Position numbers and translations under genes: made by a program. Of a DNA stretch of 20,000 nt, positions 1 to 18,656 are shown in pieces. The first letter of the stretch is position 1. Each line of letters opens with the position of its first letter. The DNA lies in the IMG/VR virus record IMGVR_UViG_3300037634_003213; one strand, written 5' to 3'. The notes beneath the pieces were generated by a model. It searched no databases. It was not told the origin of the DNA and saw nothing but the letters and a program-made list of their open reading frames with translations. The stretch comes from an uncultured virus (IMG/VR IMGVR_UViG_3300037634_003213). Its lineage: Duplodnaviria; Heunggongvirae; Uroviricota; Caudoviricetes.

Positions 1-179
1 GATGTACCAGTATGCAGAAGGCTGCGAGCGCATGAAGGGCGGCCACTCGGAGGCAGTGGCCACCGCTGAGATTGTCTACACTGGATGATCTCAACCCGCC
101 TACAGGTCACTGGCAAGAAGAAATGAGCGACCCTCGGGGGTGCAATGCCCCCTCCACTTTCAACAATAACGAGGCAACC

Positions 180-539
180 ATGAGCTACCGAGAATTCGAT
201 CATCAAGTATCCACTCTGGACCTGGCCTACATAGCCGGACAGATCGTAAATGAAGAGACAGGAGGGTGGTTGACCGAGGCGCACACCCTTTACGCACCCA
301 AGGAAGGCTACTCCAGCTTTGCAGTCGTCATAGATGAAGCAGTTCTAATGACGGCAACCGAGGAAGGGAACCTCGTAATCTGGAATCTAAACGAACCGCA
401 TCCGTACTGCGGAGACGGATACGACAGAGACTTTTATGTAGTCGAAGACTTCATTGAACGCATGCTCAAGAACAAGCAAGACAACTGCAACATAAAGCCC
501 GCGCCAACTTGGATGCGGGAACAACTCTCCAACCCATAA
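180..539 (+). CDS. Hypothetical phage protein (start moved to ATG 180)
   Basis: GAGGCAACC directly before ATG 180, in frame with the ORF-track 72..539. Confidence 0.75.
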   Translation: MSYREFDHQVSTLDLAYIAGQIVNEETGGWLTEAHTLYAPKEGYSSFAVVIDEAVLMTATEEGNLVIWNLNEPHPYCGDGYDRDFYVVEDFIERMLKNKQDNCNIKPAPTWMREQLSNP

Positions 540-552
540 AGCGAGGCAACCA

Positions 553-735
553 ATGAGAGGCATCTACATCATCGAGCAGTCCGGCGACAGGGTCACCGGG
601 CACTACCTATCCAAGAAAGGCGGGCGTTGGAGAGTCCACCTATTCAAGAACTGCTCACTCGAAAAAATAATTGAGAACGCATCACACGTCATCCATGAAC
701 CCACCATCTACACACTCACCAAACGAGGCAACTAA
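553..735 (+). CDS. Hypothetical protein, 60 aa
   Basis: GAGGCAACCAATG start; TAATG coupling to the next gene. Confidence 0.75.
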   Translation: MRGIYIIEQSGDRVTGHYLSKKGGRWRVHLFKNCSLEKIIENASHVIHEPTIYTLTKRGN

Positions 736-1127
736 TGAGATTCAAAGTAGACATCAACGACGGCGAGGTAACGCTCGACATGAAACCAGGGGACACCATC
801 GAGCATGGATGGTGGGAGCCCACCGACGAGGGCTATAGTGGAGGCACCGTCACCTTTGAGGCCCACGAAGAGGGCATCTTCCGCACGATCTACGACCACG
901 GTAGAGACTGCGACGGCTGCATATCATCCTTGCGCAAGGACTTCTGCCCTTGGGATGAACTGAAAGCATACGACGGGCGACGCAAGCAACTTGGCTATGC
1001 CGACGTTGTCGAGGACGGCGTCACCTATCACGAGATGCAGTACGAACCCGACCCCGGCTGGCCTAACTGGCAAGAGCACGAACGCTCCCGGCACTACGAT
1101 CAATACGCTCAAGCAATGAACTACTAA
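735..1127 (+). CDS. Hypothetical acidic phage protein
   Basis: GAGGCAACTAATG start; 130 aa ORF. Confidence 0.8.
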   Translation: MRFKVDINDGEVTLDMKPGDTIEHGWWEPTDEGYSGGTVTFEAHEEGIFRTIYDHGRDCDGCISSLRKDFCPWDELKAYDGRRKQLGYADVVEDGVTYHEMQYEPDPGWPNWQEHERSRHYDQYAQAMNY

Positions 1128-1152
1128 CCGACCAACCCCGGAGAATAAAACC

Positions 1153-1560
1153 ATGAACCGAATCACATCAACCATCACCGAAGGCAACAACGTCCCCCTG
1201 GATCAGCAGCGGGACTCTTGGAAAAAGAACGCTAACCCTTGGACGGTAACGCTTCGCTACCAGGGGAGGCAGTACACCTTCCCGTTCTGGACCGGCACCG
1301 GCTGGACCAGCAAACCCAACACCTTCGACGCGGCACACTGTGTCCTGTCGGAGGCGAGCGGGTTCGAGAACTCCCAAGGCTTCGAGGACTGGGCCAGCGA
1401 CTACGGCTACGACACCGATTCCCGTGATGCAGAGGGCATCTATCGGGCGACTGAACGAGTCCACAGGAACACCAAGCGCTTGCTTGGAGATGACTACCGC
1501 TGGTTCCAAACCACCCTCGTCTATATGGATGAGGAAACCCTTCAAGAGAGAACCCGATGA
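1153..1560 (+). CDS. Hypothetical phage protein (FEDWASDYGYDTDS motif)
   Basis: GGAG RBS upstream; 135 aa; motif resembles a recurrent phage early-protein family of unknown function. Confidence 0.8.
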   Translation: MNRITSTITEGNNVPLDQQRDSWKKNANPWTVTLRYQGRQYTFPFWTGTGWTSKPNTFDAAHCVLSEASGFENSQGFEDWASDYGYDTDSRDAEGIYRATERVHRNTKRLLGDDYRWFQTTLVYMDEETLQERTR

Positions 1561-1574
1561 GAGTCTAACCGATA

Positions 1575-1638
1575 GACTGAGAGCCTGTCGAAAACAAACC
1601 AAAGATTGTTTGTCCCTGAGTAAGGGCCAACAACGTCT
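1575..1638 (+). promoter_or_regulatory. Conserved intergenic element copy 1 (probable phage early promoter)
   Basis: GACTGAGAGCCTGTCGAAAA-N16-TGTCC-N18-CGTCT, colinear with the copy at 4788-4851. Confidence 0.55.
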
Positions 1639-1684
1639 ACCTAATAGCAGCCAATGAAGGCTGACCAAACGAGGCAACAACACC

Positions 1685-1993
1685 ATGAAAAAACAACCTG
1701 ACTACAATCATGATCTCTACGATATCTTTGAGCCCGGTGAACCAGGATTCCACGGATACAAAATCGGTGAGAGGCTGCGCAATATCGGAGCAAAAGAGAC
1801 AACGTGGACGGTGGTTCAAATCTTCTGCCCGAATAGGCCGGAAAGCCTGGGCGAGATTCGCATTGTCAATGACCAGACTAACTACAAAAAGTATGTAGAG
1901 ACACACACCCTGGACCTTTACTGGGTCCGAGTACCGGAAGAGGCAGCCCCCGTGAAGACCTGGACACCCGAGGCGGGCTGGGTTGTATCATGA
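1685..1993 (+). CDS. Hypothetical protein, 102 aa
   Basis: GAGGCAACAACACCATG start. Confidence 0.75.
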   Translation: MKKQPDYNHDLYDIFEPGEPGFHGYKIGERLRNIGAKETTWTVVQIFCPNRPESLGEIRIVNDQTNYKKYVETHTLDLYWVRVPEEAAPVKTWTPEAGWVVS

Positions 1994-2151
1994 CAACCGA
2001 GGAGCTTTTAGAATGCATTCGCGAAGCAATGCCGCACGTGTACCGACAACAGGGACACGGCAAGCATGAACAGGACCGGGCCGACGCCGAAGCATGGTGG
2101 GAAAAATGGAAAGAGATCCGGCACCTTGCAACAACCCATGACATATCGTGA
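1990..2151 (+). CDS. Hypothetical protein, 53 aa (MTTEELLECIREAMPH...), not in ORF track
   Basis: ATGA overlap with the upstream stop; hand-translated open frame fills the gap. Confidence 0.6.
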   Translation: MTTEELLECIREAMPHVYRQQGHGKHEQDRADAEAWWEKWKEIRHLATTHDIS

Positions 2152-2196
2152 CAACAACCAAAGTGTAGCCATGCTACATACACAACGAGGCAACCA

Positions 2197-2382
2197 ATGA
2201 CAACCTACACACAAGACAACAGGCAGTACCAAGTACACGACTGCAAGACATGCGAAGGCTCCGGGCTCGCACCGTGGCACCTCGGATGCGGCGACAGTGG
2301 TCCCGACGATTGCAGGAAGTGCGACGGCATCGGCCAGTACGCCACTGAAATAACACCAACAAAGGAGGCAACCAATGGATGA
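2197..2382 (+). CDS. Small zinc-finger protein (DnaJ-type CxxCxGxG repeats)
   Basis: CKTCEGSG and CRKCDGIG; GAGGCAACCAATG start. Confidence 0.75.
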   Translation: MTTYTQDNRQYQVHDCKTCEGSGLAPWHLGCGDSGPDDCRKCDGIGQYATEITPTKEATNG

Positions 2383-2590
2383 CTACACAGCAGCACGATT
2401 CGCTGATGCTTACGAGCGACCCTACCCCGAGGACCACCCACGGTGTGAGTACTGCGGCGAGCACTTGACTGATGACGAGCAAGACCACGAAGGACCGAAC
2501 GAACTGTGCAGCGAACACCGCACGGATGACCAACAGACAGAACAACAACAACAACAACAACCAACCCTAACGGAGGCAACCAATGGGTGA
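2375..2590 (+). CDS. Small acidic Cys/His protein with poly-Gln tail
   Basis: CEYC...CSEH; GGAGGCAACCAATG start; (CAA)n run near 2543-2560. Confidence 0.65.
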   Translation: MDDYTAARFADAYERPYPEDHPRCEYCGEHLTDDEQDHEGPNELCSEHRTDDQQTEQQQQQQPTLTEATNG

Positions 2591-3608
2591 ATCAACAACA
2601 AAGAAATGGGACCCCTACACACACATCACCGACCTTGTGATCGAAGGACTTGAGAAGGGCGTCGGCCCTTGGTCTAAGCCATGGCGACTGAAGCCGGGGA
2701 TGTCCGATGGACTCAACGGTCTACTACCATTCAACCCCTGCACCAAGTCAGGTGGTCGAGTGTACAACGGCAACAACTCCTGGCTGCTGGCCATCCGTGG
2801 CCTGCGCTTTGGATGGACCGACCCTCGGTTCTGCACCTTCAAGCAGGCAAAGGCGCGAGGCTGGCAGGTCAAGGACGGACAGAGCGGTGCCAAGGATGGG
2901 CCGGGTCCATCGCATGTGTACTTCTTCATCGTGAAGAGCTACCCGAAGCTGAGTACGCTGACCGGCGAGCCCTTGGTTGACAGCAACGGCAAGCCAATCA
3001 TGTGGACATCATTCAAGCCGAAGGTGTACCGAGTGTGGAACTTCGAGCAACTCGATGGACCCGAGGCATGGGTGACCGAAGAGGAGGAGGCCGCCGAGGT
3101 GACCGAGGAGGAGACCACTGCACTCAAGCATGACCTTGCATGGGAAGTCATCGAGGCATGGCGACAGGTGGTGCCTACCAAGTTTGGTGGAGGGCGAGCA
3201 TTCTATATGCCTTCCGCTGACCGCATCCAACTGCCAGAGTACGAGGCGTTCGACTCCGAGGAGGACGCGCTGTCCACCGAGTTCCATGAGGACATCCACT
3301 CCACGGGGCATGAGTCCCGAGAGGAGCGAGACTTCTCAGGACGATTCGGCAACGAGGCATACGCCTTTGAGGAGTTGGTAGCAGAGCTTGGGTCTGCAAA
3401 CCTCATGGCTGCGACCGGCGTAGTCGGTCCCGGCATTGTCCGAGAGGACCACGTCAAGTACCTACAAAGCTGGATCAAGGTGCTCAAGAAAGACAACAGG
3501 GCGCTGTTCACGGCGAGCAAGCTGGCACGCCAAGCAACCGAACGCATCCTAAAGAACCATGAACAATCCGTGTCGGCGGTCAGGGAGACAACGGAGAAGG
3601 CTGCGTAA
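2583..3608 (+). CDS. ardC: ArdC-family antirestriction protein (N-terminal ssDNA-binding domain plus zincin-like metallopeptidase domain)
   Basis: ITDLVIEGLEKG.GPW.KPW, YNGNN, TFKQAK..GWQV, AFY.PS.DRIQLP, HEDIHSTGH (HExxH), YAFEELVAELGSA, YLQSWIKVLK. Confidence 0.9.
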   Translation: MGESTTKKWDPYTHITDLVIEGLEKGVGPWSKPWRLKPGMSDGLNGLLPFNPCTKSGGRVYNGNNSWLLAIRGLRFGWTDPRFCTFKQAKARGWQVKDGQSGAKDGPGPSHVYFFIVKSYPKLSTLTGEPLVDSNGKPIMWTSFKPKVYRVWNFEQLDGPEAWVTEEEEAAEVTEEETTALKHDLAWEVIEAWRQVVPTKFGGGRAFYMPSADRIQLPEYEAFDSEEDALSTEFHEDIHSTGHESREERDFSGRFGNEAYAFEELVAELGSANLMAATGVVGPGIVREDHVKYLQSWIKVLKKDNRALFTASKLARQATERILKNHEQSVSAVRETTEKAA

Positions 3609-3653
3609 GCAGCCGCAACGGGGTGAGGGTAGGGACATACCCTGCTCTCATCC
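3599..3653 (+). terminator. Tandem RNA hairpins after ardC (terminator or processing site)
   Basis: GGCTGC-GTAA-GCAGCC (3599-3614) and GGGTGAGGGTAGGG/CCCTGCTCTCATCC (3621-3653) with three G-U pairs; no U-tract. Confidence 0.45.
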
Positions 3654-3707
3654 CAACCCTACCTTAGAACACAACACACGCCCAGCAATGGGCACTGGAG
3701 GCAACTA

Positions 3708-4070
3708 ATGACAAACTATACACTATACATTGCAGAGATTGACAACCTACCGGAGGACGCCACAATCGACGAACTGGCGTTTCTTTACTACAAACCCCAC
3801 CAAGATACACCGGGCCCAGTTCACATGTTCCGAGTCAAGGCGACAGGCATGGAGGAAGCAACGGAGCGCTTGCGTGGTCAAGCATTCAACAAAGGCTGGT
3901 CTATTCACAACACCCTTTCAATCGTGGTTGACGGGGCAGGCATGAGATACCGCGACTGGATTGAGATGAACTTTGACGCGGCGAACAACGAGTTGTTCAA
4001 AGCCAAGGAAGAAGCAGCCAAGTGGGCGACTGCTTTGCATAAACTAAACCAAACAGGAGGCAACCAATGA
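3708..4070 (+). CDS. Hypothetical protein, 120 aa
   Basis: GGAGGCAACTAATG start. Confidence 0.8.
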   Translation: MTNYTLYIAEIDNLPEDATIDELAFLYYKPHQDTPGPVHMFRVKATGMEEATERLRGQAFNKGWSIHNTLSIVVDGAGMRYRDWIEMNFDAANNELFKAKEEAAKWATALHKLNQTGGNQ

Positions 4071-4300
4071 GATACGAAATGTTCTACACCGTCACGATCC
4101 AGAGAGGCGGCTGCGTAGAGGTAGAGGCAGACAATGCCGAGGAGGCTAAGGCAATCGCCATGGCCTTCCTCACAGAATCAGATGAGTCCAACGTCACCCG
4201 CTCTTGGCCTGACTGCGTGGACATGGACGATCCCAAGTACGTTCTCGATGAACCCACAACGAAGAGAGTGATGGATGGAATGCTCGAAGGATGCCTGTGA
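4067..4300 (+). CDS. DpnD/PcfM-like small protein
   Basis: Y...TVTI....VEVEADNAEEA pattern; GGAGGCAACCAATG start. Confidence 0.6.
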   Translation: MRYEMFYTVTIQRGGCVEVEADNAEEAKAIAMAFLTESDESNVTRSWPDCVDMDDPKYVLDEPTTKRVMDGMLEGCL

Positions 4301-4401
4301 TGAGGCTGGCACTTGAACTGACTGGCCTTTGCATCTTTCTGTGGGCGGTCATGGAGGCTCGTGGATTCATCAAATCAATCGAGAAGCAAGAGCGTGAGTA
4401 A
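4300..4401 (+). CDS. Putative 33-aa membrane peptide (MRLALELTGLCIFLWAVMEARGFIKSIEKQERE)
   Basis: TGATG coupling; hydrophobic N-terminus and charged tail. Confidence 0.45.
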   Translation: MRLALELTGLCIFLWAVMEARGFIKSIEKQERE

Positions 4402-4453
4402 GCCATCAGCACTGGAGCTAATCGTTGCACGGACCCTTGAGCATTGGTTGAGG

Positions 4454-4756
4454 AAACCAAGAATGTCCCAACCTAAAACCAAGAACGTCCCAAAAGATAA
4501 GCGTAAACCATTGAAATGATTAGCGTCTGGTTTTGCAAATGTCCCAAGCCATTGTGTGAAATGTCCCAAGTGTCCCAAGGTTGAAGGCCTAAGCATCTGG
4601 AATCACTGTGTTCCATTCGGGCAAATGTCCCAGCCTGACATTCAAAGTTCCCTTCTCCCCCAGACCCCCTCTACCCTCAAATGTTTATAATTGGTATAGA
4701 TATACACTAGTAGGTATATGAATCTAATAAAAGATAATTGGATCTAATAAGATCTC
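4454..4756 (+). repeat. Non-coding GTCCCAA repeat array followed by an AT-rich tract (origin-like)
   Basis: GTCCCA(A) at 4465, 4487, 4541, 4563, 4572, 4627; AT-rich 4681-4750 with ATCTAATAA twice. Confidence 0.75.
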
Positions 4757-4787
4757 AGCGGCCTGTCAAACCCCAATCAACACAAGG

Positions 4788-4851
4788 GACTGAGAGCCTG
4801 CCGAAAATAAAATAAACTTTTCCTGTCCGCCTAAGACATTTGACCGCGTCT
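4788..4851 (+). promoter_or_regulatory. Conserved intergenic element copy 2 (probable phage early promoter)
   Basis: GACTGAGAGCCTGCCGAAAA-N16-TGTCC-N18-CGTCT; first block 19/20 identical to copy 1, same spacings. Confidence 0.55.
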
Positions 4852-4908
4852 TCTAAGACAGGAAGGGAAAACCCCGACCGACAACCAACCCCAACAAGGC
4901 AACCAATC

Positions 4909-5262
4909 ATGATCGAATGCATCAATCTTTACCCACTATCTGAAGACCAAGACCCTGGCGGAGAGTACCAAGTTCACCCGCTTGTGCGGCTTGAGTATTG
5001 GATCAAAGGCAAACTACAAGACAAGCTGGACCCCAACGACCTCATGAAAACCATGGCCGGAGTACCAGCCACCGCCGAAGAGATCGCCCTGTTGCGCGAG
5101 GCATACACGGCTTGCCTAAAGGGCGACCTCGAACGTGCCATCTTTCTGGCACGTGAGTACGAGCAGCTTGATCCCTATGGATTCTATGACGGAAGCTTCT
5201 GGGATGTGAAGTTCCCTGACATCGTCTTTGTTCAACCAATCCCCAACCAACTCAACAACTAA
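4909..5262 (+). CDS. Hypothetical protein (start moved to ATG 4909)
   Basis: AAGGCAACCAATCATG variant motif. Confidence 0.75.
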   Translation: MIECINLYPLSEDQDPGGEYQVHPLVRLEYWIKGKLQDKLDPNDLMKTMAGVPATAEEIALLREAYTACLKGDLERAIFLAREYEQLDPYGFYDGSFWDVKFPDIVFVQPIPNQLNN

Positions 5263-5275
5263 GAGAGGAAACCCC

Positions 5276-5797
5276 ATGAGAACATTCAACAACCGACAGA
5301 TGAGCGCAGCCTTCAAGAAGCTGGGCTTCCGTAAATCCGAATATCAACTGACCCGAATGGGCATAAGCTACAAGCACCCATGGTCCAAGGCCCTGTTCAC
5401 ATTCGCTAAGGCCGAGAACGGCGGTATCACTTGCTCCGCTCCCGGCGAGGATAAGCTGTGGAGCTTCCCCCTCGGACTAACTCAAGAGAAGTTCGAGGCG
5501 TTCGAACAGGCTGGCGTTCGATTCCCTTGGGTAGAGGACAGCAATGCTGACCAGATAGGAGTGCGCGAAGTCCTGCTATGCATAGCCCGAGGCTTTGGCG
5601 AGATGCTCGAAGAGGAAGTGGAGTGCGACGAGTGTGGCGAGGTGGAGTACCGGGCCCACATGGTCCAAGGACCCAACGGGCTTTTGATACATGAAGACTG
5701 TGTAGAAGAAGTAGCAGACTGGAATGAACACCCAGATGCATTTACCAAACGCATGCTTGAACGGCGTGCCCAACAACAACAGGAGAGTGAAGTATGA
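5276..5797 (+). CDS. Hypothetical protein with C-terminal CxxC...HxxC zinc site
   Basis: GAGAGGAAACCCCATG start; CDECG...HEDC. Confidence 0.75.
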   Translation: MRTFNNRQMSAAFKKLGFRKSEYQLTRMGISYKHPWSKALFTFAKAENGGITCSAPGEDKLWSFPLGLTQEKFEAFEQAGVRFPWVEDSNADQIGVREVLLCIARGFGEMLEEEVECDECGEVEYRAHMVQGPNGLLIHEDCVEEVADWNEHPDAFTKRMLERRAQQQQESEV

Positions 5798-6048
5798 GCG
5801 ACAAAGAACGGCAAGGAACAATCTTAGAAACCGTGACGACGGAAGGAGGCACCGTCTACGAACTGCGACAGGATGGACACTACTGCAAACTCTACACTGT
5901 AGGAGAGCACGGCTACTTCTGTGGCTACGTCAGTAACCCTGAGTACATGCAAGACGCCATCGACAACCACGAGGAAGAGATGAGAATCATGCTCGCTGAA
6001 GCTCAAGAAGAGTTTGAAGGTAGTTTACTACTTGACGGTAGAATCTAA
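5794..6048 (+). CDS. Hypothetical acidic protein, 84 aa
   Basis: AGGAG RBS; ATGA overlap. Confidence 0.7.
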   Translation: MSDKERQGTILETVTTEGGTVYELRQDGHYCKLYTVGEHGYFCGYVSNPEYMQDAIDNHEEEMRIMLAEAQEEFEGSLLLDGRI

Positions 6049-6049
6049 C

Positions 6050-6094
6050 CAACAACCAACAACCAACAATCAACAACCAACAATCAACAACCAA
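6050..6094 (+). repeat. Tandem 7-mer CAACAAY x6 in a 5' leader
   Basis: Read directly; ends just before GAGGCAACCAATG. Confidence 0.9.
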
Positions 6095-6106
6095 GAGAGG
6101 CAACCA

Positions 6107-6649
6107 ATGTTCAATCACAACACACAAATCAACCGAGCCGGGGCAGCAATGACCCGAGCATTCCAACAAGCAGCCGAGGCGCTCATCGAACAGCGAGACA
6201 GCAGCGACTGCTGGGACCTAAAGCAACTCGGGGTCAAGCGAAAGACCTTCAAGGGTGTGAAGCTTCATCGAGTCCTTCTATGCAAGGGCTTCAACCAACC
6301 CCGCATCGCCGTAAGCAATGGCAGTATTGCATTCGACTTGGTAGGCAGCGAGCAGCATGACGCTTGGCTCGACACCAACCACGATGTCAATGCTTGCACC
6401 GGGCCAAGCTGGGAGAAGCAAGAGGTAGGCATCAACCCTGAAGTCTTCGACCAAAGCGGCTGGCTTGTCCAGAAGCTGCACCACGAGAAGGCAGGGGTGA
6501 ATGCCGTGCTGCTCAACGCTGCACTCAAGTGGGTAGGCGACGGACCTGTCTCAATCACTCAGAAGCCAACCGAGCCACTCGGACCCATCCTTGTGCAGAA
6601 CACGGAGAAGCTTGTGTCGGTGGTAGTGATGCCAGTCCGACTCACCTAA
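6107..6649 (+). CDS. Protein with a C-terminus resembling the DNA Pol III beta-clamp (DnaN) C-terminal domain
   Basis: GAGGCAACCAATG start; ends NAVLLNAALKWVGDGPVSI...PILV.....SVVVMPVRLT, like the DnaN terminus (..YVVMPMRL). Confidence 0.6.
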   Translation: MFNHNTQINRAGAAMTRAFQQAAEALIEQRDSSDCWDLKQLGVKRKTFKGVKLHRVLLCKGFNQPRIAVSNGSIAFDLVGSEQHDAWLDTNHDVNACTGPSWEKQEVGINPEVFDQSGWLVQKLHHEKAGVNAVLLNAALKWVGDGPVSITQKPTEPLGPILVQNTEKLVSVVVMPVRLT

Positions 6650-6719
6650 ACACTAACGACCTGGACACGTCATCAAACTGTCCACCCACCAACCAACTGA
6701 CAACCTATGGAGGCAACCT

Positions 6720-7307
6720 ATGGAATCTATCCTTTACACACAACTAAACCCTGACGACTGCAACATCCAAGACGTGGAGTTTGAGCGAGGTATCAACCGC
6801 TTCATGGAGCGGTACATGACCAGCTTTCCTCTCTCGCTGCTTGAGAAGGACTACGATCGCTGGGAGCTTCAACCTCTTGGTACATGCGAGGTCGAATCTG
6901 AGTTTCCAGCAGACTCTGACGACTGTCACGAAGTGTTCTTCGTCATCGACATCTACGGCGAGCGGCATGAGTTCGCGGACGAGTGTGATGCTGAGTACTT
7001 TGCTCAGGAGCAGAACGAGGAGGAAGAGCAGAACCGACTTGGCTTCCCTTGGGCGCACAACTGCTGCTTCATGCCAGAAGACAACATCAGGGACGAGGAA
7101 CTGCGTGCCGCTGGATTCACTATCGCGCTCTATACAGACAGCGACGGTGATCAAGTGCGCCTCTGTGGGATTGATAGCTGCGGCTACTCTTTCATGGGCG
7201 CTCACTTCTCCAAGCTGTGTGCAATCGTTTACCACCGCTGGGGCAGGGCAGTGCAGACTGTCGATGGTCTCCGGCTCATCGAGTTCCCTAAGACAGGAGG
7301 TGAGTGA
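6720..7307 (+). CDS. Highly acidic hypothetical phage protein (GIDSCGYSF..AHF motif)
   Basis: GGAGGCAACCTATG start; 195 aa. Confidence 0.8.
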   Translation: MESILYTQLNPDDCNIQDVEFERGINRFMERYMTSFPLSLLEKDYDRWELQPLGTCEVESEFPADSDDCHEVFFVIDIYGERHEFADECDAEYFAQEQNEEEEQNRLGFPWAHNCCFMPEDNIRDEELRAAGFTIALYTDSDGDQVRLCGIDSCGYSFMGAHFSKLCAIVYHRWGRAVQTVDGLRLIEFPKTGGE

Positions 7308-7462
7308 TGAGACTGAATCTTTGGGGCCGCTGCAACGGCGGCGAATGGGAACACATCGACAGCGCGGAGAGCACGGACGACAAGTCCTATCTCCTCGCTG
7401 AATACCGGATGGCCTTCGGGCCGGGCTGGCAGTTCCAGTGGCGACGTAAGGGAGGTGAGTGA
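7307..7462 (+). CDS. Hypothetical protein, 51 aa (MRLNLWGRCNGGEWEHID...KGGE), not in ORF track
   Basis: Bounded by two GGAGGTGAGTGATG cassettes; hand-translated. Confidence 0.8.
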   Translation: MRLNLWGRCNGGEWEHIDSAESTDDKSYLLAEYRMAFGPGWQFQWRRKGGE

Positions 7463-7662
7463 TGGGTTTTCTCGACAGGGAGTTCAACCCCACCTACAAG
7501 ACGCGGTGGCTGCCATCCAAGAAAGTGCTGAAGCCAGGACAGAAAACCTATCGAGTGAAGGAGAGAGAGGATCACCACGAGCAGACTTGCGACCAAATGG
7601 ACAGGCTTAGTGAGCTATTACAAGAGCCACCCTCATTGAGTGATGGGGGGTTCAAACCATGA
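7462..7662 (+). CDS. Hypothetical protein
   Basis: GGAGGTGAGTGATG start. Confidence 0.7.
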   Translation: MGFLDREFNPTYKTRWLPSKKVLKPGQKTYRVKEREDHHEQTCDQMDRLSELLQEPPSLSDGGFKP

Positions 7663-8123: not shown

Positions 8124-8183
8124 CATTTAGTGACAACCAAACATAAACAACGTGGTTACTATGTAGCCACGGAGGCAACAACT

Positions 8184-11308: not shown

Positions 11309-11648
11309 TGTCGCTGATGGAAGCGAAGTACCCGCAGCACCCTGGCATTATGGTGCCGTCCAAGCATGGCTTGCCTGGCGCAAGGTGCAGCAAGAAATGG
11401 GAGACAGCATCTTGCTCAAGGACTTCTCCGCTGACTGTAGCAGTACGATGGTGCGCGTTGTCGCACTTCTGTCTGGTCTCAACAAAGGCTCGGGATCATT
11501 TAATGCCGTGCATAAGTGGTGCATTGAAATCTCAGCCTCTTGGAAAGAGCGGGGTGTGCCTTACGAGATGTGGCTGCTGGCCCGACCGGATGGAACGATT
11601 GGAGCCAAAGCAAGAAAAACTACTGACAACAAAGCTAAGACTGTATAA
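11265..11648 (+). CDS. Hypothetical protein, possible paralog of 11919..12194 (start uncertain)
   Basis: AVHKWC...LLARPDGTI vs ALHNWA...IGLWPDGDV. Confidence 0.5.
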   Translation: MKRSTIRTAESRAINVADGSEVPAAPWHYGAVQAWLAWRKVQQEMGDSILLKDFSADCSSTMVRVVALLSGLNKGSGSFNAVHKWCIEISASWKERGVPYEMWLLARPDGTIGAKARKTTDNKAKTV

Positions 11649-11683
11649 TATATGCATACACAAGGAGGAAACTAAAAAGCACC

Positions 11684-11938
11684 ATGACGAACTCTTTGCC
11701 TGTTCACCCACATGTGTTCTGGGCACCAACGACAACCTTTAAAATCACCACCAACAACTTCAAAATATGCTGGAAACGGGGGCCCAGACGGGAAGCAATG
11801 GGGGCAGACCCGATCAATAACCTTGGCGACATAACTACTAACGATAACCCTATCACCTATACAAAGACTCTTTGGAAGCGGATTGCCGCTATCAGCACGA
11901 GGAAACAAGGAAACAACCATGATAAGAACTACACCTAA
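11684..11938 (+). CDS. Hypothetical protein
   Basis: AGGAGG upstream (long spacing); TATAAT at 11644-11649. Confidence 0.35.
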   Translation: MTNSLPVHPHVFWAPTTTFKITTNNFKICWKRGPRREAMGADPINNLGDITTNDNPITYTKTLWKRIAAISTRKQGNNHDKNYT

Positions 11939-12194
11939 ACCAAAAGAAACACGCGCCCAGAAATTCTACAGGCTTTCCGAATGCAAATCAATGGCAGAGT
12001 TTGCACGCAAGACAAGCTTCCACCCAGTGACAATAAGAACATATCTCCTTCCATCCGATAGGAAAAGCTGGAGACCAACACCTATCCCTGCTTTGCATAA
12101 CTGGGCACAAGCCCTCAAGGAAGGCGGCGGACCATCAATCGCTATTGGGCTTTGGCCTGATGGGGACGTGACCTTTGAAGTCGAACAAGAATAG
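11919..12194 (+). CDS. Putative HTH DNA-binding protein
   Basis: AAGGAAACAACCATG start; SMAEFARKTSFHPVTIRTYL. Confidence 0.6.
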   Translation: MIRTTPKPKETRAQKFYRLSECKSMAEFARKTSFHPVTIRTYLLPSDRKSWRPTPIPALHNWAQALKEGGGPSIAIGLWPDGDVTFEVEQE

Positions 12195-12483
12195 GCGACC
12201 AAAGTATTGGTCAAACTGGAGAGAGGACTCAAAGCTGTCGAGCATAGTGGCTTCCTATGAGATCTTCATAGGGGATAGACTGTCTGTTGTATCGTTCACT
12301 AATACAGGCGCACCCATAATGGAGATAGTCTCGCCAAAAAGATCACTAAGAAAAAAAGCAAAAAAAGCAGGGATGATTTATGGGCGATGGCCAACAGAAA
12401 ACGGTGGAGAACGGCGCGGGTGGATACCTGGCCGACCTGATGAGCCGTTAGAAACAAACCCTTATTTAATTGAAAAGCGTTGA
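12175..12483 (+). CDS. Hypothetical basic protein (start uncertain)
   Basis: 102 aa ORF fills the gap before the convergence point. Confidence 0.5.
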   Translation: MKSNKNRRPKYWSNWREDSKLSSIVASYEIFIGDRLSVVSFTNTGAPIMEIVSPKRSLRKKAKKAGMIYGRWPTENGGERRGWIPGRPDEPLETNPYLIEKR

Positions 12484-12507
12484 TGAGTAGTAAAAGTCGG
12501 TTAGACT
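12480..12507 (+). promoter_or_regulatory. Putative sigma70 promoter for the candidate sRNA
   Basis: TTGATG (12480-12485)-16 bp-TAGACT (12502-12507). Confidence 0.4.
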
Positions 12508-12513
12508 TAAACC

Positions 12514-12585
12514 TGTCAGGTGTTGGTTGCCTCCAACCACGACGTTGCGACCCCGGTAGTGTCGGTCTCTATCGGGGTCGCTTTA
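12514..12585 (+). ncRNA. Candidate small RNA antisense to the GGAGGCAACCAA start motif
   Basis: TTGGTTGCCTCC at 12523-12534; stem GTTGG/CCAAC with loop TTGCCT; followed by a strong hairpin. Confidence 0.55.
12547..12584 (+). terminator. Intrinsic terminator-like hairpin at the convergence of + and - operons
   Basis: GCGACCCCGGTAG/CTATCGGGGTCGC 13-bp stem (one G-U, valid only on +), followed by a short TTT. Confidence 0.7.
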
Positions 12586-12592
12586 CGTCCAG

Positions 12593-12784
12593 CTAAGACT
12601 GTTGAGAATATCCATCGGCGGCCCAGCCGCCCCCTTTGAGTGAGAAGCTTGTCCGCGATACCATCTTATTGGTCCGCTTAGACTGGCACTTTGGACACAC
12701 CTGGGCTTTGTCGCGCTCCGCTTGGGACAAGAGCTTATCGAACTGAGCAGCGCAGTTGTCACAACGATATTCAAAGATGGGCAT
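12593..12784 (-). CDS. FmdB-family zinc-ribbon protein
   Basis: MPIFEYRCDNC...F...CPKC...SFSLKGGGW..DGY; starts immediately after the dnaB stop. Confidence 0.85.
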   Translation of the reverse strand: MPIFEYRCDNCAAQFDKLLSQAERDKAQVCPKCQSKRTNKMVSRTSFSLKGGGWAADGYSQQS

Positions 12785-12785
12785 T

Positions 12786-14186
12786 TTAGTACCAGGTTGG
12801 TTGACTGTCCTCATCATCAAGGTCTTTCCTTATACGCTTAACCTGTGTGAATTCAACGGGCCGCACTACCCGCCGAGTCTTGTCCTCAAACTTCTGGTTA
12901 CTCGCATTCCAATCCACATGCACAGTGCCGGTTGCTCCGTTGCGATGCTTGGATATAATAATCTCAGCGTCTGAGGGGTCAGCCCTTTCGTCGTAGTAAC
13001 TGTGCCTATAAAGGAACATCACCACGTCTGCGTCTTGTTCCAGTGAGCCAGAACCTCTTAGGTCTGACAGCATGGGCCGCTTGTTGGTGCGCTGCTCGCA
13101 GCCACGGTTGAGTTGGGCAAGGCAGAGGATAGGCACATCCAAATCTCTTGACAGCACCTTTAATGCACTGGACACCTGTGAAACACTTTGCTCCATACTC
13201 TCCGCTTTTGGCGGTCGAATAAGTTGCAGGTAGTCCACCACGATCAAACCAAGATCGGGCTGCCTTGACTTAAGGCGGCGTGCTTGTGCAGATATTTTTG
13301 CAATACTGATCCCAGCCTTATCTGAAACATACAAGGGAGAATCGTGAAGGAACTCAAGCGCTGATGTTTCAAGCCGGTCCCAATCTTTAGAGCTAAGGTC
13401 TCCCGTCTTTATGTTCCAAGCGTTTACCTTGGCAAGTGAAGAAGCCATTCGGTCAGTCAGTTGATCCGCGCTCATCTCTAAAGAAAAGAAAGCCACAGGT
13501 ACTCGTGCCTCTAAAGCAGCAACCGCAAGGTTTAAAGACATGGCTGTCTTGCCCATGGAGGGTCGAGCAGCCAACAACGTTAGGCCAGGGTGAAGGCCGC
13601 TCAATACATTGTCGAGCGCCACAAGGCCCGTAGACAAGGCAGTCACAGTTCCGCTGGCATTTAGCGCAGCAAGCCTCTCCCACCGATTCTGAGCGCTTTC
13701 GACAAGCTGCGGACCCTCATGCCAGTCGTCTCCACGTTGTCTGCCAGCAATGTCTAGTAGGTCCTTCTGGCCCTGCTCAATAAGCTCATCAATCTCTAAG
13801 CCGCCGTTGGTAGCGCAAGCCTGTAAATTTATAGAGGCTAAAACCATTCGCCTACGAATAGCCTTCTCTCTCATGTTCTTGGCATGGTAGGGAACCGAAT
13901 CAAGAACAGGACAACATTCAGGCAGGCTTGTGATGTATGCGAGGTCGTTATATTTAGACTCTGAATTTGTGGTCATGAGATGTTCGCAAACCATCAAGAC
14001 ATCAACGTGCTTCCCGCTGTGGGCTCGCGAGCGAATCAAAAGATAAAGGTTCTTGTGTTTGTTACTATAGAAATCGTCTGGCTCGATCTCACCAGCAACG
14101 TCATTCAATAGTGTGGAGTCTGATAGTAAACCTCCGAGAACAACTTTTTCGCTTTGAATGCTGTTAGGAAACTGCTTGTCGGTCAT
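12786..14186 (-). CDS. dnaB: Replicative DNA helicase
   Basis: AARPSMGKT (Walker A), FFSLEM, VDYLQL, QLNR..E.R..KRP.LSDLRGSGSLEQDAD, KHRNG.TG. Confidence 0.97.
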   Translation of the reverse strand: MTDKQFPNSIQSEKVVLGGLLSDSTLLNDVAGEIEPDDFYSNKHKNLYLLIRSRAHSGKHVDVLMVCEHLMTTNSESKYNDLAYITSLPECCPVLDSVPYHAKNMREKAIRRRMVLASINLQACATNGGLEIDELIEQGQKDLLDIAGRQRGDDWHEGPQLVESAQNRWERLAALNASGTVTALSTGLVALDNVLSGLHPGLTLLAARPSMGKTAMSLNLAVAALEARVPVAFFSLEMSADQLTDRMASSLAKVNAWNIKTGDLSSKDWDRLETSALEFLHDSPLYVSDKAGISIAKISAQARRLKSRQPDLGLIVVDYLQLIRPPKAESMEQSVSQVSSALKVLSRDLDVPILCLAQLNRGCEQRTNKRPMLSDLRGSGSLEQDADVVMFLYRHSYYDERADPSDAEIIISKHRNGATGTVHVDWNASNQKFEDKTRRVVRPVEFTQVKRIRKDLDDEDSQPTWY

Positions 14187-15151
14187 CGGTGGTTGCCTCT
14201 ACTAATGATTTTGTTTTGAGTGTTGCTCTGAAGCTCAGTCCGAACCTCTGATAGAAATTGATCGCGTACAACGTGTTGCTGTTTTCCAGGTCGGAGGGTT
14301 CCCAAAAATCTCCAGCCCCCCACTGAATCAACAGCCTCAACCATTGCTTCATGCACTCGTCGTATACTGTGAAGCGATGTTGGCCGAGAAGGATAAGCCC
14401 CAACCAAGAACAGCAGGCGCTCCCACAGAGCCTCGTACTTTGGTTCAAACGATTGCTTCTTAGGTGGAATGAATACCCATTCATTTCCATCCCATCTTTC
14501 TCTGGCCACTGTCACATTGCGATCTACCTTCTCTCTATTAAGAAGATTGGCAATGTCCATGTATCCCTGCTGTCGCCAGCTATCGACCAAGAAGTCACCG
14601 TCTGGAAACTCAAAGGCCATTCGGACAACAAGGATGAGATCCTGAGCGGTATGACCCCCAACCAAAGCGGCCCGTAACACACGCTCTCTACCCTTCGTTA
14701 GCTTGTTGTGGCGATGGGTCCTTCGGTATTGAGCTAACTCCCAGACATCAAACACAGTTCGGATCTCTACAACAAATCGTTCAGCACGTTTTGGGACGAT
14801 GACAGCAGCAGGTTGGGACGCAAAAAGAACCAGGCTTTCTGTGATTACAGGGGTTTGCGTATCCTCAACAGCGATAGTTTGGGACGGCACCGTATCTGTG
14901 TTGGGACAATTTGGTTTAAATCGATCCAGTATCGAGCGTGTTTTTCTTTCGGTAAGACCCCATCGACTCATTAGTTTTCGGCGCGACGGAACTTTTCCAG
15001 TTTCAAGTTCAAGAAAACCAATATCAATTTCTGCCAATTTAATAGGCCATGGTTTTTTTATAGCCTGCCGAACCTGCCTCCACGCATCAGCAGTGATTAA
15101 TAATCCGGTCGGTCCACTGTCTTTATTCATCTTGCCATCGGTCCTTTCCAC
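14183..15151 (-). CDS. Phage replication initiator/replisome organizer (N-terminal wHTH; start uncertain, ATG 15130 possible)
   Basis: SRRKLMSRWGLTERKTRSIL wHTH; directly upstream of dnaB; internal iteron-like repeats. Confidence 0.7.
   Translation of the reverse strand: MERTDGKMNKDSGPTGLLITADAWRQVRQAIKKPWPIKLAEIDIGFLELETGKVPSRRKLMSRWGLTERKTRSILDRFKPNCPNTDTVPSQTIAVEDTQTPVITESLVLFASQPAAVIVPKRAERFVVEIRTVFDVWELAQYRRTHRHNKLTKGRERVLRAALVGGHTAQDLILVVRMAFEFPDGDFLVDSWRQQGYMDIANLLNREKVDRNVTVARERWDGNEWVFIPPKKQSFEPKYEALWERLLFLVGAYPSRPTSLHSIRRVHEAMVEAVDSVGGWRFLGTLRPGKQQHVVRDQFLSEVRTELQSNTQNKIISRGNHR
14791..14907 (-). repeat. Four GTCCCAA iteron-like repeats inside the initiator gene
   Basis: TTGGGAC on + at 14791, 14813, 14879, 14901 (spacings 22, 66, 22). 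Confidence 0.75.
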
Positions 15152-15201
15152 TTCTACTGATTCATAGCGAAAACTGTTTGACTGTCAATGCCTGTGACAA
15201 A

Positions 15202-15720
15202 TCATGACAATTCGTTTTGCAAATTTCTAAGGCCCCACATTGCGATACACGCCGCGTCAGCAATGCCGTCGTGAGCTTTGCGTTTTCTGCCTGGTGATAA
15301 ATCCAGTTTGGGTAGCCGCTGTTTACAAAGATAAATGGCGCGGCCCTTTCCTGAGCCGGGGACATCTCGGAGCACTGACTTTTGCCAGGTCTTAGGATGC
15401 ACCACCGAACAGGGGATGGCTAATGTCCCTATTACACCAAGCCACAAGCCGTACCCCATCCCAAGCGAAAACATTGAAGTCCCGCCCTGTGACGGCATGG
15501 CCTGCTGTTTTTCTATACATACAAGACGCACTTCTTGCAGCGCATGAAGCTCAGTTAAATGATTCCCCATAGCGACTGCGTCATATTCTCGTCGGCTACC
15601 TTTCCCAATCGGAACTGTGAACCGCTCCTTGGTAAGCGCTACACTCCTTATGATTCCGTGTTCGTCCATGGCGACAACCGCGCCGTCTTTCCCTGGGTCA
15701 ATTGCTACTACTAAACTCAT
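15202..15720 (-). CDS. RuvC-like Holliday junction resolvase
   Basis: VAIDPGKDG, CIEKQ, SMFSLG..YG, V.PKTWQK, DGIADAACIA; GGAGGCAGAAAATG start. Confidence 0.88.
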   Translation of the reverse strand: MSLVVAIDPGKDGAVVAMDEHGIIRSVALTKERFTVPIGKGSRREYDAVAMGNHLTELHALQEVRLVCIEKQQAMPSQGGTSMFSLGMGYGLWLGVIGTLAIPCSVVHPKTWQKSVLRDVPGSGKGRAIYLCKQRLPKLDLSPGRKRKAHDGIADAACIAMWGLRNLQNELS

Positions 15721-15958
15721 TTTCTGCCTCCAATATCTCGGGTACAAGGTCATCAAACATAAGGGAACCAGGCTTGACGCCAAGCCGCGACGAAATTTCT
15801 TCAAGCCGTTTTTTTCTTGGAGCAACGCGGCCCGACATGTACCGCTTTAAAAGCGAGTAGTCTATGCCTGTTTCCCTGGAAAACTGCCTGAACCCGCAGC
15901 CGTAAGCTTGGATTAGGTAGTGAAGGTTCTGACCAAATATTCGATAGGGCTCGTTCAT
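15698..15958 (-). CDS. XRE/Cro-family HTH regulator
   Basis: FGQNL...FRQFSRETGIDYSLLKRYMSGRVAP....LEEIS..LGV. Confidence 0.85.
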   Translation of the reverse strand: MNEPYRIFGQNLHYLIQAYGCGFRQFSRETGIDYSLLKRYMSGRVAPRKKRLEEISSRLGVKPGSLMFDDLVPEILEAENEFSSSN

Positions 15959-16001
15959 TGTTTCTACTATATAGTATTGGGGGCAAAATGCACACCCACC
16001 C

Positions 16002-16030: not shown

Positions 16031-16091
16031 CTTTTGGAGGCGGTCAGTTTATTGCTCGTCATTACATTATGCTAATCCAAGGAGAGCACCC

Positions 16092-16727
16092 GTGTCTATT
16101 TTACCTGAAGTTACTGAGACTCTAATGAAGGAAAGCAATACAAGAAAGCTTACAGACCCAAGCGTTTTGATTGCCACGGCTAACCGCATGCTTTCTAAGG
16201 TCACAGTCGAGGGGAACCCAGAGCACCGGACCCGTAGCAAGATTGCCCGCTGGCGCGTATCAAACCTTCTCAGCGCTATTGATGAGGCCACTTGGTTCAA
16301 TATGGTATCAGCAACGCTTGACGGGCAAAAGAAAACCCTGAACAACATGCAGTCAAACGGCGACTGGCAGCCCTGTGGTTTCGAGGCTGAGATCCGCGAG
16401 GACGCTGGGGTGGCTATCTTTATGCTCGGTGTTGAATGGACAGATGAAAACGGGGCGGAAGATGTTGTCTATCAGAACGGTGCCCCTGTTGTAAACGTTA
16501 ACGTCACCACAAAAAGCGAACCAAGCGGTGGCAACGAAATGACTCTTGAGATCTTAAAGATGCTGGCCGCAGGCCAAGTCAATGCTAACGAAGCCATTTC
16601 ACGCTTAGAGGGCGTTCTCTCCTCAAAAGATGAGGAAGAAGTCATTAAAGAAGCAGAGCCTACAGCCAAGGCTAAGACAGCAACCACTAACAAAAAGCGC
16701 TCAATCGGAAAACGACCTACGAACTGA
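16092..16727 (+). CDS. Hypothetical protein (GTG start)
   Basis: AAGGAG RBS before GTG 16092; 211 aa. Confidence 0.75.
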   Translation: MSILPEVTETLMKESNTRKLTDPSVLIATANRMLSKVTVEGNPEHRTRSKIARWRVSNLLSAIDEATWFNMVSATLDGQKKTLNNMQSNGDWQPCGFEAEIREDAGVAIFMLGVEWTDENGAEDVVYQNGAPVVNVNVTTKSEPSGGNEMTLEILKMLAAGQVNANEAISRLEGVLSSKDEEEVIKEAEPTAKAKTATTNKKRSIGKRPTN

Positions 16728-16901
16728 TCGGCGCTCATCAGGATGAATCCTTTGGACCGACCCATCGGCACTAAGAAGCCCTGCAAGTTCGAGGTTTTTA
16801 CCTCGTTCCAGGGCGACCTTTGGTTTATCTCCAGAGTCCACCGCTTTTTTGGCATACTTGGCGGCTCTTGCGATTCCTTGATGACTAATTTTATTTTTCA
16901 T
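16701..16901 (-). CDS. Putative leaderless small basic protein (MKNKISHQGIARAAKYAKK...)
   Basis: Minus-strand TAGTCA-17-TATAAT ending 6 nt before the ATG. Confidence 0.4.
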   Translation of the reverse strand: MKNKISHQGIARAAKYAKKAVDSGDKPKVALERGKNLELAGLLSADGSVQRIHPDERRSVRRSFSD

Positions 16902-16929
16902 AAAAACATTATACCCCACGGAGTACAAC

Positions 16930-17868
16930 TTGACTAAACCTGAAGGCTGGCACGAGGCAAGAATGTCTGGTTTGGGGGGCTCCGACATTGCGGCAGTCCT
17001 CGGATTATCTAAATGGACCAGTCCCATTGACGTGTGGAATCAGAAGCGAGGGCTTGTTGAGCCACTTGATGAAACCAATCCAATGAGGCGAGGCCGTTTG
17101 TTAGAACCTGCTATTGCTGAATGGTATGCAGAAGAAACTGGTCTTGATGTTTTGAACGGTGAAGAGATGCCCATCGTTGGGCCAAAGCCATTTATGCTTG
17201 CAAGTCCTGATAGGTACGTCAGTGTTAACGGAGCCCGATTCGGGTTGGAGATTAAAACAGCGCGTAGCGCTGACGGCTGGGGAGACTCCCTTAGCGCTGG
17301 CGTGCCTGTCTATTATGCAACCCAGGCTGCTTGGTACATGGCTTGTACTGGTATTGACCGATGGGACTTCGCGGTTCTGTTCTTGGTCAACGATGAGTTC
17401 CGTCGTTACACGCTTTTTCGGGACAAGAAGACAGAGAAGAAGCTTGTAAAGAAATGTGGTGACTGGTGGGAGAAACACGTTTTACTTGGAGAGCCACCAC
17501 CCATCGACGGATCATCGGCTGCTGACAAATATTTACAAGACAAGTTTAGCAATCCAAGTGATGAGTACCGTTCTCCAGACATAGAGGAGGAAGCTTTGAT
17601 CTTTGATCTGGATGACATCCAAACGGAAATCAAGTCTTTGAAAGAAAAAGAATCGCTTTTAAAGAACAAAATTAAAGAACGTATAGGCAAAAACGCGGGC
17701 TTTCGTGGGGTGTTCGGAACCGTATCTTGGAAGCTTAGCAAGGGCCGGTCAAGCCTCAACTCCAAAGCTCTTAAGGAAAAACACCCAGACATAGCAAAAG
17801 CTTTTACTAGAACGTCTGAACCTGCAAGGATTTTAAGAATGAACATTCAACACAAGAGAGGCAACTAA
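16930..17868 (+). CDS. YqaJ-like (lambda-exonuclease family) recombination nuclease
   Basis: W...R..GLGGSDIAAVLGLSKW.SP..VW, GRLLEP, ASPDR, LEIKT, Y..Q..WYM. Confidence 0.93.
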   Translation: MTKPEGWHEARMSGLGGSDIAAVLGLSKWTSPIDVWNQKRGLVEPLDETNPMRRGRLLEPAIAEWYAEETGLDVLNGEEMPIVGPKPFMLASPDRYVSVNGARFGLEIKTARSADGWGDSLSAGVPVYYATQAAWYMACTGIDRWDFAVLFLVNDEFRRYTLFRDKKTEKKLVKKCGDWWEKHVLLGEPPPIDGSSAADKYLQDKFSNPSDEYRSPDIEEEALIFDLDDIQTEIKSLKEKESLLKNKIKERIGKNAGFRGVFGTVSWKLSKGRSSLNSKALKEKHPDIAKAFTRTSEPARILRMNIQHKRGN

Positions 17869-18656
17869 TGGCTAAAAACGAAATCGCTCAGAAACCAGTA
17901 ACTAAGATGGACAAATTTAAAGATCTCATCAACGGTAAGATGAAGTCGCAAGTGGCAGCCATCTTACCGAAACACCTTACTCCTGAACGCCTGTGCAAGG
18001 TCATGATTGTTGAGGCAAGCAGAACTCCTAAGCTATTGGAATGCACAACCATTTCCGTGGCAGAGTCTATTATGCTGTCCGCTCAACTCGGGCTGGAGCC
18101 AGGCGGCACACTGGGCCACATCTACTTCATCCCATACGGAAACAAGTGTACGCCTATCATTGGCTACAAGGGATACCTTGAGCTTGCGAGACGTAGTGGA
18201 CAAGTTGCTCGTCTTGATGCTCGTGTCGTCTACGAGGGAGAAAAGTTTGAGGTAACCGCTGGGCTGCATCCCAACATTGAACACGGTGTTCGTGGCGATG
18301 TAGACAGGTCTGACGACAAGATTATTGCCGCATACTCCGTTGCCGTACTCAAAGACGGCTCATGCTACTTCGAGGTTCTCTGGAAGGTAGACATCGACAA
18401 GGTGCGTCGTCGTTCTAAAGCAGGACGTAGCGGCCCATGGGTAGATGACTATTCCCGCATGGCTCGCAAGAGCGCTATCCGGGCGCTGTTTAATGGCGGC
18501 ACCGTACCGATGTCGTTTGAGCTTGCAACGGCTGTTTCCGCAGACGGCGACGATCCTCACGCAAAAATGCCACCTATTGACATCACTCCGTGGGAAGACG
18601 ATAGCAAACCCAAAGAGACTAACGGGATGAGCGACCTTGGCGCGGCACTCGCATGA
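17868..18656 (+). CDS. recT: RecT-family single-strand annealing protein
   Basis: LP.HLTPER, PKLLECT..S, AQLGLEP, Y.IPYG, IIGYKG..ELARRSG, GPW..DY..MARKSAIR; coupled to the yqaJ-like gene. Confidence 0.95.
   Translation: MAKNEIAQKPVTKMDKFKDLINGKMKSQVAAILPKHLTPERLCKVMIVEASRTPKLLECTTISVAESIMLSAQLGLEPGGTLGHIYFIPYGNKCTPIIGYKGYLELARRSGQVARLDARVVYEGEKFEVTAGLHPNIEHGVRGDVDRSDDKIIAAYSVAVLKDGSCYFEVLWKVDIDKVRRRSKAGRSGPWVDDYSRMARKSAIRALFNGGTVPMSFELATAVSADGDDPHAKMPPIDITPWEDDSKPKETNGMSDLGAALA

Follow-up and report, generated by a model that had tools for sequence, protein, structure and literature searches.

A tag shared by early gene starts and a candidate antisense small RNA carrying its complement in an uncultured Caudoviricetes genome

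Why should one and the same motif, conserved beyond the needs of a Shine-Dalgarno (SD) site, stand before so many genes of a phage? The question arises from the early arm of an uncultured virus of the Caudoviricetes (IMG/VR record IMGVR_UViG_3300037634_003213). The window analysed here is a whole stretch of 20,000 nucleotides, i.e., bases 45,971-65,970 of the 65,970-bp record, which is 91% complete. A preliminary description had read the motif, GAGGCAAC (hereafter the tag), as a recognition site for an RNA or protein regulator or as a microhomology for the shuffling of gene cassettes. Judging from sequence, we consider it probable that the window itself encodes the partner of the tag, a trans-acting antisense RNA of the phage (12515-12586, plus strand) that would pair with it and block translation of about 18 genes.

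The tag occurs in 16 exact copies in the window, compared to a mean of 0.91 and a maximum of four in 200 dinucleotide shuffles. Fifteen of them, as had been counted before, are followed by an ATG 1-6 nt downstream. The earlier statement that both strands are involved is true, but the split is 14 on the plus strand to one on the minus strand, the latter being the start of dnaB, which is also tagged in the relatives L005-L010, L044, and L046. The sixteenth copy (12526-12533, minus strand) had been overlooked; it lacks an ATG and is situated between convergent genes. The whole genome contains 20 exact tags. They all fall within 44.3-63.8 kb, the first 44.3 kb being free of them. An ATG follows in 18 cases, in two of which the open frame has less than 30 aa; of the remaining two copies, one is a sense copy lacking an ATG (genome position 44340) and the other the antisense copy. 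The tag is confined to non-structural genes; none of 22 structural-arm starts examined carries it, and the endolysin-like gene carries a variant. It is an asymmetric motif at the position of the ribosome-binding site, with the extended consensus GAGGCAAC(C/T)A and a spacer of 0-7 nt to the start codon in 125 sites, 113 of which have ATG.

The plus strand at 12526-12533 presents the complement of the tag in the hairpin loop of an element of about 72 nt. The sequence runs, in this order, through TTGATG, 16 nt, TAGACT, a hairpin of 29 nt with the loop UUGCCU, a hairpin of 35 nt, and a short U run. TTGATG (12480-12485), overlapping the stop codon of the open reading frame (ORF) 12175-12483, constitutes a putative -35 box and TAGACT (12502-12507), 16 nt past it, a putative -10 box. 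The candidate trans-acting antisense small RNA, with predicted ends at 12515 and 12586, folds into two hairpins (z -4.9). Its 5' seed hairpin (12515-12543), indicated by the fold and by covariation of the stem, exposes the loop at 12527-12532; the seed UGGUUGCCUC (12524-12533) is the reverse complement of GAGGCAACCA and is invariant in the aligned copies; and a terminator-like hairpin with a short U run (UUUAC) occupies 12547-12586, the hairpin being kept while its sequence varies between clades. All these parts lie on the plus strand. Concerning the promoter, the -35 box is of the TTGA type in the aligned copies (T and A invariant, T and G in at least 90% of 12), the spacer is not conserved, and the -10 boxes are of the TAnnnT type (TAAAAT, TAAAGT, TACACT, TAGAAT, TATTCT). 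TTGACA is found as -35 box in L044, L046, L061, and L167, and in relatives of 49-54% DnaB identity the promoter is nearer to the consensus (e.g., TTGACA-17-TACACT); several relatives possess four or five U at the terminator versus UUUAC in the window. No ORF of at least 40 aa covers the element. An Rfam search of the window and of L003 yielded nothing at gathering score, with two chance-level matches (E 0.8-3) within 12300-12800, and the c4 and P4 CI immunity RNA models did not match the element. By sequence and conservation, a putative promoter, a terminator-like hairpin, and no reading frame make up the layout of a trans-acting small RNA (sRNA).

The element was found in all eight DnaB-related loci with a DnaB identity of 69-100% and reaches relatives of 49-54% identity. 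L011 has an inverted helicase module with rearranged neighbours, and the element, placed after the resolvase gene there, is intact. Of 45 further loci, 17 passed a filter that considered only the promoter boxes and a CCUC/CUCC loop, and each of these 17 has the identical seed; the 28 unflagged loci comprise 11 distant relatives and 17 that, according to gene coordinates, seemingly end before the site. All 15 aligned copies agree in the 10 nt of the seed (12 of 12 in the first alignment), at a mean column identity of 59%. In the five-pair inner stem, to which the counting of pairs was restricted because MAFFT misaligned the terminator stem between clades, 73 of 75 cells are paired, and two of the five pairs (six cells) are changed on both sides. 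G-U or U-G occurs in 14 of the 75 cells; as these would be A-C mismatches if the other strand were read, the antisense (plus) strand is the one that is folded and structurally selected. Folded singly, each of 12 copies shows the same UUGCCU loop together with a further hairpin (z -4.9 to -7.9). A covariance model built from the 15 copies gave one strong match in the genome itself and no homolog in the distant relatives searched, and a scan of viral contigs for the seed pattern returned 28 loci, nine within the clade and 19 that look like chance. A conserved seed in an accessible loop on a covarying stem, as found here, characterizes trans-acting sRNAs. No protein gene stands constantly beside the element, the neighbours differing between clades.

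All 18 tagged starts can be paired with the predicted RNA through 10-16 contiguous pairs, which cover the SD site and often the AUG. Net binding after the cost of structure, computed on hand-listed starts, ranges from -7.3 to -18.2 kcal/mol at these 18 starts, with a median of -10.8. The variants that had been noted at 4896, at 5265, at 15731 (minus strand, ruvC-like gene), and at 19621 (minus strand, endolysin-like gene) are all as described. Among them, the wobble-compatible GGGGCAACC before the endolysin-like gene (19605-19621, minus strand) would form 12 contiguous pairs, with a net binding of -15.5 kcal/mol; AAGGCAACC before ORF 4909-5262 (4896-4911, plus strand) reaches -9.9 kcal/mol; and GAGGAAACC before ORF 5276-5797 (5265-5278, plus strand), which is not wobble-compatible, reaches -2.4 kcal/mol and is probably a poor target. 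At position 9 of the tag, which lies opposite a G of the RNA, C or T is present at 62 of the 69 distinct sites from 14 records. In the A/C-rich DNA flanking the sites, these two bases come after CAAC in 52 of 112 cases. T and A occur at position 9 in a ratio of 13:6, against 15:52 in the background.

Of the two regulators considered in the preliminary description, the RNA thus gains support, as the window encodes a conserved sRNA-like unit with an invariant seed that complements the tag exactly. What follows on transcription, pairing in vivo, repression, and timing we infer. The tag, GAGGCAAC(C/T)A, would be an SD site extended into a common target for a small RNA of the phage. An RNA of about 72 nt would be made by the host polymerase of the sigma-70 type; its loop UUGCCU would nucleate on AGGCAA in a tagged mRNA, opening of the short stem would follow, and pairing would extend over 10-16 nt across the SD site up to or into the AUG, such that the ribosome would be excluded. 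About 18 early accessory, anti-restriction, helicase, and recombinase genes might in this way be damped together by one RNA, and a lysis-type gene might be reached through the wobble variant. The most likely function would be a timed shut-off or an expression cap in lytic infection, which would fit better than lysogenic immunity because matches to integrase, resolvase, and ParA (PF00589, PF00239, PF13614) were absent from five of five near-complete genomes; a dormant state of another kind is conceivable. Secondarily, the repeated tag would serve as a crossover point for the exchange of gene cassettes.

Several points weigh against an antisense RNA of this kind or limit the evidence for it. Outside the tagged starts, net binding has medians of -4.9 (seven starts with a second motif, see below), -2.6 (21 other starts), and -3.2 kcal/mol (22 structural-arm starts), but the contrast is partly circular because the tags are defined by the complement, and two of the 21 other starts were mis-placed. 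Eleven of the 24 T's at position 9 belong to a stop codon that overlaps from upstream, so that the wobble argument loses force. None of 500 shuffles paired as highly as the inner stem (best slid control 68%), but this control ignores relatedness and hence gives no probability, and the 15 rows were found and chosen by ourselves. Promoter and U run are weak in the window (eight of 12 consensus matches in the promoter), a consensus scan lists neither promoter nor terminator, and the predicted loop moves to CCUC when extra flanking bases are included. Concerning the distribution among relatives, the tag with ATG is found in seven of seven clade records searched (3-17 copies among the matches listed) and in none of eight distant records, seven of which are at least 97% complete; this shared presence and absence of tag and element represents one clade and not independent events. 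A joint change of tag and seed was not seen, both being constant within the clade and absent outside; the de novo scan for such covariation covered six distant records, five of them whole and G008 with 40 of 42 kb. Furthermore, the distant relatives G006 (L215, L218) and G008 (L223, L224) repeat AACAACAGGA(G/C) before early genes, and no antisense hairpin for this motif was found in either of them; repeated start motifs can therefore exist without an evident RNA. One candidate in G008 was dropped, as it lies inside a coding region.

The tag might instead be kept mainly by RecE/RecT crossovers that swap cassettes at a shared ribosome-binding site and homogenise the motif, with the antisense hairpin being incidental or acting elsewhere. 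In the early arm, compared with 11 relatives, 20 of 117 ends of homology blocks fall within -16 to +8 of the 16 tagged ATGs, where 3.3 would be expected by length, and nine of these 16 starts receive block ends. Blocks start at the first base of one tag and stop at the ATG of another (e.g., 170-556, 92% identity, G004); at the tag at 6710, homology runs up to the tag, and three different genes follow it in the window, L005, and L007. The second motif, GGAGGTGAGTGATG, had escaped the preliminary description, which was right about the tag. It consists of seven identical copies on the plus strand at 7296, 7451, 8718, 9143, 9334, 9782, and 10068 (span 7296-10081), combines a full canonical SD site with a stop/start overlap, and occurs too in distant relatives without the tag. 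The seven gene starts concerned bear the perfect canonical complement GGAGGTGA, which suggests an ordinary host 16S tail. Sixteen block ends lie at their ATGs (1.5 expected) and five at four variant starts, and in L005 and L007 single genes are deleted precisely between two copies of GGAGGTGAGTGATG. From the block ends and these exact one-gene losses it follows that tag and second motif mark cassette boundaries. The phage encodes a YqaJ/RecE-like exonuclease and a RecT annealase (16930-18656, plus strand; domain matches), which are likely the agents of cassette exchange at short homologies. The clustering of breakpoints among relatives, and with it the suspected microhomology, is thus borne out, with the restriction that the effect is stronger at GGAGGTGAGTGATG and in part a general effect of gene boundaries: six untagged starts gather four ends as well (1.3 expected), and BLAST extends across any shared motif. 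The second motif, with precise deletions yet no antisense partner found, speaks for recombination as the main cause. Nevertheless, we regard this explanation as unlikely, since it does not account for the lone antisense copy, which has a promoter of its own as well as a covarying stem, and dnaB and recT are tagged though they are not exchanged cassettes.

Another possibility is that the RNA exists and binds the tag but has an effect other than simple repression, namely activation of translation, guidance of a nuclease or a phage protein to tagged messages, or termination in the long early leader. In G000, G001, and G003, a leader of about 900 nt ends in the ATG-less sense tag (genome position 44340) followed by a hairpin, with a one-base variant in G002, and many tags pair weakly with their SD partner (about -6 kcal/mol). 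The CI RNA of P4 triggers termination by acting on leader sites, and an additional role of this type is conceivable in view of the ATG-less copy. As an account of the tagged gene starts, a non-repressing RNA appears improbable, as pairing over the SD site up to the AUG is the usual geometry of a translational block and no gene for a partner protein stays adjacent to the RNA.

The protein regulator of the preliminary description, i.e., an RNA- or DNA-binding protein of phage or host recognizing the tag, with the extra copy as decoy or operator, is not favoured and would be very surprising. The phage does possess helix-turn-helix and zinc-ribbon regulators, and Pope et al. (PMC3203893) left protein or RNA open for the start-associated sequence (SAS) of mycobacteriophages; a decoy, however, should show the sense sequence, whereas the promoter, the U run, and the G-U pairs all indicate the antisense strand, and a DNA operator needs neither a fixed orientation nor a spacing of 0-7 nt to the start codon. 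It is scarcely credible that the tag is an ordinary SD site whose spacer is unstructured and rich in A/C, or that it matches an uncommon 16S tail of the host: the regions upstream of starts are about 69% A+C, but the 22 structural-arm starts examined use the same ribosomes without the tag, seven starts carry the perfect canonical complement, the preference for C/T at position 9 runs against the local A bias, and the tag is no by-product of A/C-rich leaders because equally A/C-rich distant relatives lack it.

The proposed antisense RNA resembles multi-target bacterial trans sRNAs such as GcvB, grouped here with the P4 CI RNA, in that one short seed would serve many messages; in contrast to this group, its targets would be the phage's own genes, with a near-exact tag fused to the SD site. 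The sar RNA of P22 is cis-encoded; unlike sar and PAK_P4as15, which have one target each, the candidate RNA overlaps no target. A review (PMC12197685) treats c4, sar, and PAK_P4as15, all of which act on one target or operon. As in the c4 RNA of P1/P7, a phage antisense RNA would act at a ribosome-binding site, the complementary sequences being thought to lie in loops, and as for sar and PAK_P4as15, it would block translation of phage genes, which these two RNAs do or are proposed to do (PMC12197685). In contrast to c4, which concerns antirepressor synthesis from one operon in a temperate phage, about 18 scattered genes share one tag here, and no Rfam match exists. While the described phage antisense RNAs acting on phage genes have one target or operon, one RNA of about 70 nt appears to address some 18 scattered genes here, as a stand-alone unit that is cleanly supported by comparison among relatives. 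In the literature searched, which lacks most subscription papers, we found no description of a phage RNA with complementarity to a common start motif. The hairpin at 12515-12586 could be among the 10,006 candidate viral RNAs listed in the supplements of a further study (PMC10690425).

The closest parallel to the tag itself is the SAS. It stands before 11-19 non-structural genes in Cluster K, with one reverse copy in four of these phages (PMC3203893), and is also found in Cluster EF Microbacterium phages (PMC7302621), whereas the repeats of Cluster O differ (PMC4351075). The tag shares with the SAS of Clusters K and EF the position of an over-conserved asymmetric motif at the ribosome-binding site a few nucleotides before the ATG of 10-19 non-structural genes, and with the four Cluster K phages the single copy in opposite orientation away from any start. 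Its sequence is different and does not match the consensus GGGATAGGAGCCC (Cluster K) or GGGAAAGGACCCC (EF), such that the two are analogues and not homologues; the SAS belongs to unrelated phages and is shorter (9-10 nt), and no inverted repeats of the extended SAS (ESAS) type were seen here. In Adephagia, the reverse SAS is situated in the interval that separates gene 92 from gene 93, and in Adephagia and Anaya it makes up the loop of a long hairpin of the transcribed strand. Late transcription of Adephagia appears to begin between the same two genes according to Freeman et al. (PMC11373665), who in 2024 stated that the role of the SAS is not known; the mirror hairpin of Cluster K thus lies in the interval where late transcription appears to start. 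In an alignment of 12 Cluster K phages, four show the exact anti-SAS loop, four a C/U-rich variant, and four none (nine additional phages were chosen from 40 of 169 matches); the SAS is unchanged in the three variant-loop phages checked, and the stretches of TM4 and Pixie examined contain no reverse copy within two mismatches. In contrast to the patchy exact loop of Cluster K, the mirror copy of the present phage comes with a predicted promoter and terminator of its own, and all relatives that extend as far as the site have kept it. In the Mycobacterium phage Yuna (L147:17832-17844), an ATG-less SAS is flanked by an inverted repeat, such that the anti-SAS would be exposed in a loop of the opposite strand.

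It may be, though we put this forward tentatively and would sooner doubt than assert it, that phages build RNA-controlled regulons in general from a private tag at the ribosome-binding sites of a gene class and one mirror-image hairpin RNA, which would explain the SAS, including that of Cluster K. The parallel with Cluster K is partial, and the evidence for the generalisation is mixed. A concrete mechanism would thereby be offered for the SAS, whose role was called unknown in 2011 and 2024. If the proposal is true, genes recombined into the genome would arrive already under control of the RNA because the tag doubles as crossover point, and regulation would be tied to mosaic evolution, the tag being the place of cassette swaps.

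Concerning the individual tagged starts of the window, tags are situated on the plus strand at 171-182 (ORF 180-539), 543-555 (ORF 553-735), 725-737 (ORF 735-1127, overlapping the upstream stop in TAATG), 1671-1687 (ORF 1685-1993), 2187-2199 (ORF 2197-2382), 2365-2377 (ORF 2375-2590, within the upstream coding end), 3698-3710 (ORF 3708-4070), 4057-4069 (ORF 4067-4300), 6097-6109 (ORF 6107-6649), 6710-6722 (ORF 6720-7307), and 8172-8186 (ORF 8184-8729). Also on the plus strand, tags precede the ArdC-like anti-restriction gene 2583-3608 (2573-2585; domains PF08401 and PF18818), the DUF7417 gene 10536-10736 (10527-10538), and the RecT gene 17868-18656 (17858-17870, in overlap with the YqaJ/RecE gene at its end). 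On the minus strand, a tag at 14184-14199, with the exact copy at 14192-14199, precedes the DnaB helicase gene 14186-12786. Where coding ends run into a tag, ORFs 2197-2382 and 2375-2590 end in EATNG and ORFs 553-735 and 16930-17868 in KRGN, as the preliminary description had stated.

The window comprises small early genes and genes for an ArdC-like anti-restriction protein, DnaB, a RuvC-like resolvase, YqaJ/RecE, RecT, and an endolysin-like protein, while terminase, major head, and other virion genes are found in the first 40 kb of the genome. A close cultured phage was not found, the best DnaB match having 39.6% identity, and a nucleotide search with the sRNA element gave no match to a cultured phage. 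Beyond the phage clade, DnaB matches do not exceed 42% among the matches listed, and a scan of a genome collection for the host yielded eight loci of 28-40% identity; these searches brought up no host. A search of sequencing runs for positions 10000-16000 of the window listed none from RNA. Contig names of several relatives bear marine-survey labels. In L001, an ORF of 4,494 aa (146-13630, minus strand) is without PHROG match.

Next to the candidate RNA, the 102-codon ORF 12175-12483 (plus strand), whose stop codon overlaps the -35 box, has a counterpart of similar sequence in the corresponding position of L005-L010; it is thus possibly a genuine gene, with read-through that might extend into the small RNA. 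A tRNA-Asn(GTT) gene adjoins the terminator, on either strand, in four of six relative loci scanned (L008/L009:11393-11468, L010:6830-6905, L046:12704-12778); in the window, a zinc-ribbon gene is found there.

The leader upstream of the early arm (L003:11550-12450, genome 43.55-44.45 kb) extends over about 900 nt with little sign of coding, shows block-wise conservation in G001-G003, includes a CTCTTT(C/G)A block that is repeated, and had no match in an Rfam search; it is a candidate for a large structured leader RNA. In G004, a match to the hammerhead type II ribozyme (L129:5950-6018, 37.5 bits at a cut-off of 37) is situated shortly upstream of the first tagged gene. An element consisting of GAGCCTG and an A-rich part is repeated in intergenic gaps (window 1575-1615 and 4788-4828, L003 around 11480-11500); as it is kept upstream of the leader in relatives, it probably belongs to early promoters. 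In the whole genome G000, there is an excess of the palindrome TCTATAGA (12 counts on both strands versus 1.5 expected). The gap at 4440-4800 of the window, which is without coding sequence, contains several TGTCCCA repeats and an inverted repeat, TTGGTT-GAGGA-AACCAA, at around 4445-4461, and is a possible origin or operator region.

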